A DNA stretch of 7,952 nucleotides from a virus (IMGVR_UViG_2609459852_000002), one strand, 5' to 3'; shown: positions 2,905 to 4,554, counted from the first letter of the stretch. Notes: generated by a model not told the origin, from the letters alone. Numbers and translations are program-made.

Positions 2905-4554
2905 TCAGGACCGAAGAACAATAAAGAATGAAAGCATGGAGCCAATCAGCGTCATAATCACCCTGAAAGTGGCCCTGACTTCATCGGTATCAAGCAGCAC
3001 ACAAAAAGTATCCAGTTGATAATCTTTATTCCAGATATTGAATGTAAAGACAGGACACTGCCCCCGTGGAATTGTCAGTGAAAAATCACGCGCAGAAGGC
3101 CACATATTCCACAATGGAGAAATGAATGATGAAGGCTCAGGAGATGAAATATCAGGCGTATCCACTGAAGGTGCAGTGCCAAAGTCATTTGACACAGTCA
3201 CGTTAACATTTACCGTAGCATTACCTGTTACAGTGGTACTGCCAGAACCTGTTCCGACTCCAGCTCCTGTACCGCTACCCGTTCCAGTGCCTGTACCCGT
3301 TCCAGTGCCTGTACCCGTTCCAGTGCCTGTACCCGTACCGCTGCCTGTACCCGTACCGCTGCCTGTACCCGTACCGCTGCCTGTACCCGTACCGCTGCCT
3401 GTACCCGTACCGCTGCCTGTACCCGTACCACTGCCTGTACCCGTACCACTGCCTGTACCCGTACCACTGCCTGTACCCGTACCACTGCCTGTACCCGTAC
3501 CGCTGCCCGTACCTCCAACGGGCTTAAAACCGGGGTCAATAACAGGAGGGGTATATTTACCTCCAGAATTGCTGGTATCACCACCTGGTGTCGGAGGAAT
3601 AGCAATAACACCAGATTCTGTAAAACTTGCAGAATCACCGATGCGGAGATCTACCGTAGAACGATAATTGTCTACGTCAGCAGAGGAATATTTCAATAAA
3701 AACGAAGATATCCCGCGATATTCAGAGAGGCCATCTAATTGTTCAGTCAGCCCGTTAAGAATATCTGCAATATCCTGAGATGCCAGATTATTTCCAGAGA
3801 AAGAAGGCACGTGGAGAGACGATGAGAATGGATTTTCAGTGGTTGCTGCCTCGCAAGTAGAATTACCGTCAGAATAAAACAGAACCTGACCGTTATCACA
3901 AAAAACAGAATCCTCACTTAACGTTACTGACCAGAATACAAACGAACTCTGGGACCAGGAACCTCGAAAATAATAAGCGTAGGAGAATGTGTACCACTCA
4001 TTATCAACGTCACTCTTCGGAGGAGTATAATAAGACGACTGAAGCGAGGATTTTTCTTCAGGAGGTAAGCACTGAATACCCCGCGCAGCAGCAGAAAACG
4101 GCGAAGTACTGGTAACGTAGCAATTATCAACCCCGCCATGCCAGGCCTTGACACCCGCACTCATGGCTGGAGTGTAATAAAACGCGTTATAGCCGTTTTT
4201 ATCTAAAACCAATTTTGCCACCTCCTCAGCGAAAGGCTTTCCTGCGGCATAAATTCCAAGACTGACAGTAGTTACACCAAGACCGTAAGCCAGAGTACTC
4301 CACGACATTGCTGAAGCAGAAATTCCGGCAGATGCAGCATAATTTGATGCAAAAGACGCTGCCGCACGTGAATATCCTGATAACGTTGCCGAAATAGATG
4401 AGGCGCTGGCCCCCATTGCAGATAATTTGCGATTAATAATACCGGACAATTCAGAAGAAAATGTTGTGGTAGTCAGTGTCGCTGTTTCAGCACAGGCGTG
4501 ATTTGTTAACAAAACGTACAATAGCGACACAGAAATATTTTTCAAAAAACTCAT
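2905..4554 (-). CDS. pIII-like adsorption (minor coat) protein with a (GSGTGT)n Gly-rich linker, 549 aa
   Basis: Signal peptide [23 protein letters not shown]-terminal domain, long Gly/Ser/Thr repeat linker, C-terminal domain ending in a hydrophobic anchor ([16 protein letters not shown]). Follows the terminator after the major coat gene, as gene III does in Ff. Confidence 0.8.
3247..3513. repeat. 18-bp tandem repeat array inside the pIII-like gene, encoding (GSGTGT)n
   Basis: Twelve contiguous perfect 18-bp units from ~3283 to ~3498 in three blocks (3x TCCAGTGCCTGTACCCGT, 5x ACCGCTGCCTGTACCCGT, 4x ACCACTGCCTGTACCCGT), with degenerate units on both sides. Confidence 0.9.

Follow-up and report, generated by a model that had tools for sequence, protein, structure and literature searches.

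What is a long and almost perfect DNA repeat doing in the middle of a phage gene, and what follows when its copy number changes? The question is raised by IMGVR_UViG_2609459852_000002, a stretch of viral DNA of 7,952 nucleotides (hereafter the window, with positions counted from its first letter), in which an array of 18-bp tandem units lies within a minus-strand gene of a filamentous prophage. The 549-aa product of this gene very probably is, and works as, a gene III-type protein, the minor coat protein pIII. We propose as the probable answer that the array is an in-frame coding minisatellite encoding a length-tolerant tether in this protein, and that the length of the tether drifts in a largely neutral way.

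Structure of the array and its variation among isolates

The gene is divided as follows, with the evidence for each part in brackets.

2905-4554, minus strand: putative gene III, minor coat or attachment protein of 549 aa, with the array in frame (open reading frame (ORF), gene order, PHROG)
4489-4554, minus strand: predicted Sec signal peptide, then ETA (sequence reading; helix 2-17 in the model)
3517-4488, minus strand: N-terminal region, residues 23-346, presumed receptor-binding part (searches, model)
3238-3516, minus strand: whole Gly/Thr/Ser linker, residues 347-439, 93 aa (GGTGSG...GSGS) (sequence, AlphaFold2 model)
3496-3513, minus strand: degenerate 13th unit with two mismatches, the first unit in coding order (sequence, Tandem Repeats Finder, exact matches)
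3280-3495, minus strand: core array, three homogeneous blocks (exact matches, Tandem Repeats Finder, sequence)
3238-3279, minus strand: degenerate distal linker tail, of which 3247-3279 abuts the core array (allele comparison)
2908-3237, minus strand: conserved C-terminal domain, residues 440-549 (HMMER, alignments, AlphaFold2)

Exact matching resolved the core array at 3280-3495 into three blocks, of 3, 5 and 4 perfect 18-bp units (twelve in all), and Tandem Repeats Finder reported 3276-3513 with period 18, 13.2 copies, 97% matches, 0 indels and a score of 385, confirming the arrangement of three unit variants given in an earlier, sequence-only reading of the window. Variant A (CGTTCCAGTGCCTGTACC on the plus strand; three units, at 3280, 3298 and 3316) is read on the minus strand as GGTACAGGCACTGGAACG and encodes GTGTGT; variant B (CGTACCGCTGCCTGTACC on the plus strand; five units, at 3334, 3352, 3370, 3388 and 3406) encodes GTGSGT with Ser AGC; and variant C (CGTACCACTGCCTGTACC on the plus strand; four units, at 3424, 3442, 3460 and 3478) encodes GTGSGT with Ser AGT. 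Two details of the earlier description need amendment. Differences at one or two positions hold for B against C (one mismatch) and A against C (two), but A and B differ at three; and (GSGTGT)n describes nine of the twelve units, but not the three of block A, which encode GTGTGT. The longest run of exact tandem 18-mers was five in the window against one in each of 200 shuffles, which excludes chance as the source of the array. Its units run head to tail with high identity, and their length is a multiple of three, as in a coding minisatellite.

Variation was assessed in 31 prophage copies from 20 complete Escherichia coli genomes which, with the window, gave a set of 32 copies. Copy number had been expected to vary between isolates, and it does: 23 distinct arrays (the window's included) were found against 17 haplotypes of the 1356-nt flanks, with no sign of a copy number shared by all related genomes. 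The flanks were fixed at 322 + 1034 nt in every copy, placing all differences in gene length within the array, which between these anchors measured 204-348 nt (always a multiple of 3) and comprised roughly 10-18 units in the 20 genomes; the stretch it encodes between fixed residues was 61-109 aa long, and every difference in array length was a multiple of 6 nt. The distal tail at 3238-3279 was constant in most alleles and lacked 6 nt in one (JNE070796). Eleven different lengths of the coding sequence (CDS), between 1560 and 1704 nt, were found across all 27 carrier genomes. Change in the array outpaces change in its flanks, as five flank haplotypes carried two to three different arrays each, one of them with arrays of 204, 318 and 348 nt. 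On/off phase variation was considered and rejected: with a unit of 18 bp (sub-unit 6 bp) a change in copy number keeps the frame, and none of the 32 copies was frameshifted.

Within the array, the order of units was kept, with an E block (Ser AGT), a C block (Ser AGC) and a D block (Thr ACT-GGA) whose sizes varied independently (E from 1 to 5, C from 1 to 5, D up to ~11 in E200139). Some alleles carried multi-block duplications, and one allele group had a duplicated C-D segment. The window's array, E4 C5 D3, had no equal among the 20 genomes; the nearest relative overall was E5 C4 D3. Independent changes of block size together with multi-block duplications fit stepwise slippage in homogeneous blocks with occasional unequal recombination, in agreement with the block-wise expansion that had been suggested. 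Tandem copies within a genome were identical in eight of the ten multi-copy genomes. The exceptions were S21EC, with one differing unit, and RIVM_C037166, whose two copies had arrays of 258 and 312 nt; the flanks of the latter also differed, and this suggests that they are two phage variants and not the result of in situ change.

Could the array and its variation be artefacts of assembly, with noise taken for alleles? Repeats are hard to assemble, and the array does break the contigs of short-read assemblies. The protein cluster at 90% identity has 162 members and is represented by a 320-aa fragment; N-terminal fragments stop 2-10 residues into the array (...KPVGGTG, ...GGTGS), and C-terminal fragments begin inside it. 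It is because contigs break there that most of the listed cluster members are partial copies, 11 of 15 having 'partial' in the source name. Collapse of the array in short-read assemblies, which had also been anticipated, was not borne out: no collapsed allele was seen among the listed fragments, and the exact protein of the window was absent from that collection. Artefacts would, however, be hard to reconcile with 32 of 32 copies in frame and length differences in steps of 6 nt, with the agreement between tandem copies, with three strain pairs that share CDS lengths (48956 and 47258; RIVM_C037794 and RIVM_C037884; OZ547096 and OZ547048), or with divergent relatives that have arrays of their own in the equivalent place. 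We therefore regard an artefactual origin, which the earlier reading had itself named as grounds for abandoning its proposal, as very improbable.

It is scarcely credible, in turn, that the functional element is something other than the minus-strand protein, be it a plus-strand ORF with (PVPVPL)n or structured DNA or RNA of a single-stranded genome. A 209-aa plus-strand ORF (3038-3667) does span the array, and so does a 136-aa ORF in another minus-strand frame, but the reverse complement of (GGN-ACN)n has no possible stop codons, and only one minus-strand frame joins a signal peptide to the conserved C-terminal domain. Ten ORFs of the window have a Pfam or PHROG family match, nine of them on the minus strand, 7166-7381 being the only one on the plus strand. 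When folded as single-stranded DNA, the coding strand of the array was as stable as its shuffles (z = 0.05). The ORFs at 3038-3667 (plus strand, (PVPVPL)n) and 3228-3638 (minus strand, (VRVQAA)n) were accordingly rejected as compositional by-products, open across the array because the (GGN-ACN)n repeat is stop-free; they could be mis-called as genes.

The linker and the protein that carries it

The earlier reading placed the encoded linker between N- and C-terminal domains, and structure prediction supports this. The 89 residues encoded at 3247-3513 comprise 45 Gly, 31 Thr, 11 Ser, 1 Ala and 1 Val. In the full-length AlphaFold2 model a stretch of 129 residues (321-449) is coil without secondary structure, with a predicted local distance difference test score (pLDDT) < 50; confidently modelled regions precede it (residues 31-100 and 261-300) and follow it (451-549). 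The model thus supports the 93-aa Gly/Thr/Ser stretch as a predicted disordered tether joining the N-terminal region to the C-terminal domain. The nearest relatives as a rule have a Gly-rich linker directly before this C-terminal domain, and distant ones have it far less often (27 of 125 by the criterion used here). Two divergent relatives have arrays of their own at the equivalent place: an 18-bp unit with 10.2 copies, (GTGTAT)n, in E. coli O158:H23 (L021), and a 42-bp repeat with 3.7 copies in L023. At the linker position a Salmonella relative (L024) has only short repeats of 6-12 bp.

Assignment of the 549-aa protein as pIII-like, also proposed from the window alone, is supported by several features together. 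It occupies the gene III slot of the prophage (see below), and sequence reading gives it a signal peptide and a C-terminal hydrophobic membrane anchor, corresponding to helices 2-17 and 524-548 in the models. A Pfam scan of the protein gave no match, and PHROG matched its C-terminus only, to phrog_7187 and phrog_3942, families without a known function. When the last 112 residues were searched exhaustively with HMMER, 217 representative clusters were recovered; in the best 150 of these the match lies at the very C-terminus of proteins mostly ~400-600 aa long, with some short fragments. In alignments of 50 and of 96 members, Cys500 and Cys518 are the sole invariant residues besides the start Met, and in the AlphaFold2 model of the C-terminal domain (mean pLDDT 76.8) this pair ends a beta-hairpin (503-507/510-514) that is followed by the membrane helix 524-548. 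In f1 pIII, Cys354 and Cys371 stand at the start and end of a beta-hairpin ahead of the membrane helix, in a region essential for assembly (PMC10175506), the same layout of Cys-flanked hairpin and membrane helix as in the 549-aa protein. In three members of the family, P0004 (Salmonella), P0128 and P0202, the same C-terminal domain occurs together with segments that match the N1/N2 domains of M13 g3p, with E-values that refer to a database of 271 sequences, and Pfam Phage_Coat_A matches one member of the C-terminal domain family. A role of the 549-aa protein in adsorption would follow from this identity.

In a search with the full-length protein, the results were swamped by low-complexity Gly/Thr/Ser matches (TonB, per-hexamer repeat proteins), and the real relatives were P0001-P0004 and P0044 only. 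A word-indexed search with the C-terminal domain returned no match because the cluster representatives are fragments; it was the exhaustive HMMER search that recovered the family. The N-terminal region is confined to E. coli-type relatives, with two E. coli clusters the only ones found, and residues 120-213 were poorly modelled because the alignment was so shallow. Among the E. coli alleles, amino-acid replacements were concentrated at residues 139-198 (window 3961-4140), which held nine of the 16 nonsynonymous sites of the N-terminal 344 residues, while the C-terminal part outside the array had two synonymous and no nonsynonymous sites. Residues 139-198 may be the receptor-contact part of the pIII-like protein.

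Neutral drift or tuning of tether length

For the largely neutral drift that we favour, the following course may be envisaged. The tether would connect the presumed receptor-binding N-terminal region with the conserved C-terminal domain, which would serve as the anchor, first in the inner membrane and, once the virion is assembled, at its tip. Identity between neighbouring 18-bp units would allow whole units or groups of units to be gained or lost through replication slippage and unequal recombination, and recombination could take place between units or between tandem prophage or replicative-form copies. Such changes never break the frame, with the result that nearly every lineage would have a different tether. 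The spacer itself would tolerate length: a minimum reach would be required, and above that minimum length would drift mostly neutrally. Slippage or recombination as the mechanism is what we infer from the alleles, and near-neutrality of linker length from other phages only.

Some results weigh against this reading. Searches of the PDB with phmmer and hmmsearch returned no relevant match to any solved g3p, and Foldseek gave no usable match in the PDB or BFVD. An hhalign comparison with M13 g3p gave E = 0.019 and a probability of 2.4%, in an alignment that brought the two Cys pairs and the membrane helix into register. Furthermore, inter-phage recombination, and not in situ slippage, could be behind part of the allele diversity, because the two RIVM_C037166 copies differ in their flanks as well.

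The same alleles invite an adaptive explanation, in which tether length is under diversifying selection to match receptor geometry or the thickness of surface layers (capsule, O-antigen, pilus type), with a high rate of slippage generating host-range variants for the phage. The observation of 23 arrays in 32 copies, with up to three arrays on one identical flank haplotype, would suit such tuning, but any perfect minisatellite evolving under neutrality shows high allele diversity, and lengths here span 204-348 nt in one host background (the RIVM, AF34 and cS51a group). Replacements clustered at residues 139-198, with none in the C-terminal domain, form a pattern expected of a host-interaction protein. 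In f1, high infectivity needs the distance between N1N2 and C to be kept (PMC10175506), which also favours a role for tether length. In UPΦ, a group of dif-integrated and tandemly repeated E. coli filamentous prophages, gene III is the most variable gene, with 95 protein variants in 229 genomes that differ mainly in glycine-repeat number, and the authors raise the equal possibility for those repeats (PMC7307601). Against this, diversification of the glycine-repeat region of IKe in the laboratory had no fitness effect, according to the account of that work in a later paper (Bruno and Bradbury 1997, cited in PMC7307601). On balance we consider adaptive tuning unlikely. Its strongest form, a phage-side contingency locus in which rapid in-frame changes of the tether sustain a mixed population of virions that differ in reach, we consider decidedly improbable. 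If it were true, selection would keep the blocks homogeneous and the mutation rate high, and infection of E. coli lineages differing in capsule or O-antigen thickness or in receptor geometry would be maintained.

The prophage and its place among filamentous phages

The window corresponds exactly to a single complete unit, 7952 bp long, of a filamentous prophage that occurs in tandem copies. Besides the array-bearing gene, it has the following features.

5638-6864, minus strand: Rep_trans replication protein (Pfam/PHROG)
5293-5628, minus strand: phrog_14411 protein, ssDNA-binding-like, that is, like single-stranded DNA-binding proteins (PHROG)
4864-5112, minus strand: candidate major coat protein, virion structural protein (phrog_2186) (PHROG)
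2600-2887, minus strand: DUF2523 protein, pVI-like minor coat ('minor head protein' PHROG), directly downstream of gene III (Pfam/PHROG)
1530-2588, minus strand: Zot-family assembly ATPase, pI-like (Pfam/PHROG)
274-1533, minus strand: secretin, pIV-like (phrog_1012, 'protein IV of M13') (Pfam/PHROG)
1-14, no strand: half dif-like site ACATTATGCGCACT, prophage junction and start of the 7952-bp tandem unit (flank comparison)

The order of Rep, ssDNA-binding-like protein, coat protein, 549-aa gene, DUF2523, Zot and secretin is canonical for inoviruses and puts the 549-aa gene in the gene III slot (the M13 annotation runs VIII, III, VI, I, IV). In L021, L023 and L024 a homologue again stands just upstream of a gene in the pVI position, Zot and secretin. 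Exactly 7952 bp separate the start of the first copy from that of the second in E. coli O166:H15 JNE21-003 (99.6% identity), the copies of L001 running from 5001 to 12952 and from 12953 onward. Thirteen genomes have the element immediately upstream of hipBA, or of a short SIR2/transposase insert preceding hipBA, and in 12 of these 13 a LysR regulator gene is found on its other side. The left junction in L001-L013 is overlapped by a dif-like site that has one mismatch, and window bases 1-14 are half of this site. An exact search for dif inside the window found none, as only the half-site lies within it and the full site is in the flanking chromosome; copy-to-copy junctions have the half-site ACATTATGCGCACT only. 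No integrase domain was found in the ten window ORFs scanned. Integration at dif, with tandem copies joined by an imperfect dif, has been described for YpfΦ, CUS-1 and CTXφ (PMC4266046), and the junction dif-like site and tandem copies with imperfect dif seen here are features of filamentous prophages that integrate through XerCD/dif.

Neither a megablast DNA match nor a tblastn match to pIII was found in 50,697 phage records, the best pI match being to uncultured gut inoviruses at 39% identity, and two scans of species-representative genomes found no relative. The gene is present in 27 of 5,426 complete E. coli genomes, mostly from human sources. The prophage is an uncharacterised E. coli inovirus lineage.

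Several further observations concern this lineage. The structural and assembly module (window 69-5294) is also found, at 98-99% identity, joined to a different back end in L014-L020, made up of genes for a 'replication endonuclease' (2004 bp), an IS110-family transposase and a phospholipase D; this version sits at other chromosomal sites (ybiB-hcxB, yahJ-yahK and ilvI-leuO) and looks like a product of modular exchange between dif/XerCD- and transposase-integrating filamentous prophages. The pIII flanks of the window differ at 14 sites from those of JNE21-003, its closest relative overall (99.6%), and at only two from those of Z0117EC0005, of the IS110-type group, which points to recombination between the dif-type and IS110-type groups within gene III. 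A second in-frame repeat polymorphism lies in the Zot/pI gene at window 1777-1796, in a Ser/Pro-rich stretch after the predicted membrane segment: the window and 27 of 31 related copies have the 9-bp unit GACGGCGAA twice and the other four have it once, the Zot CDS then measuring 1050 and not 1059 nt. The candidate major coat gene at 4864-5112 is annotated with 249 or 243 nt depending on the strain, a 6-nt polymorphism (L006, L007, L009-L012), and is without annotation in JNE070796. Strains 48956 and 47258 have ISEc62, an element of the IS21 family, inserted within the secretin gene (L004 9274-12662 and the next copy). The element occupies the identical position in two of the three tandem copies fetched from 48956, and it therefore seems that the interrupted prophage was amplified by recombination and not by reinfection. 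In the Salmonella relative, a small gene whose product has a TolA C-terminal domain (PF06519; L024 11255-11740) lies ~1.3 kb beyond the prophage secretin gene. The pIII homologue there has an M13 N1-like domain, N1 being the TolA-binding domain in the Ff phages (M13, fd and f1), and the small gene could be a coincidence or a superinfection-exclusion decoy.

Among characterised systems, the closest likeness is to Ff g3p, in which disordered Gly-rich tethers likewise lie between receptor-binding domains and a C-terminal anchor, and which shares the short in-frame tandem DNA repeats, the gene order and the Cys-flanked hairpin with its membrane helix (PMC10175506). M13 gene III has two glycine-rich linkers made from 15-bp tandem repeats, of 3.9 and 4.5 copies; here, the unit is 18 bp and encodes Gly/Thr/Ser rather than Gly/Ser/Glu, and a single long linker (93 aa, 13 units) takes the place of two short ones, whereas the N-terminal region is unrelated to that of g3p by sequence and the match to g3p is without statistical significance. 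UPΦ resembles the present prophage as a dif-integrated tandem E. coli prophage with glycine-repeat polymorphism in gene III, but UPΦ and IKe differ from it in phage lineage and motif (GGGES in those phages), and the present array is longer and more perfect. With CTXφ, CUS-1 and YpfΦ it shares a chromosomal dif near hipBA and tandem copies joined by an imperfect dif (PMC4266046), but its replication protein is of the Rep_trans type. No sequence relationship to a named dif-integrating member was found in the phage collection, CUS-1 and YpfΦ not being directly compared. Outside phages, the Ser-Asp repeats of staphylococcal ClfA also have an 18-bp unit, coding for three dipeptides, and a strain-variable, in-frame length, and form a spacer that projects a binding domain. 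The likeness is one of analogy only, as ClfA is a bacterial cell-wall protein of other composition and without homology to the protein described here.

The array is thus the same phenomenon as the gene III repeats of UPΦ, IKe and M13, in an unrelated phage lineage, and the kind of variation is already familiar. With 23 alleles in 32 copies, it offers a highly discriminating natural marker for strain typing of the prophage, and, for assembly quality, it is a predictable break point in short-read E. coli assemblies. The effect of linker length on filamentous-phage entry has so far been studied mainly in engineered Ff phages; the allele series described here, with 61-109 aa in the variable stretch of the tether, could serve as a natural experiment on the same question.

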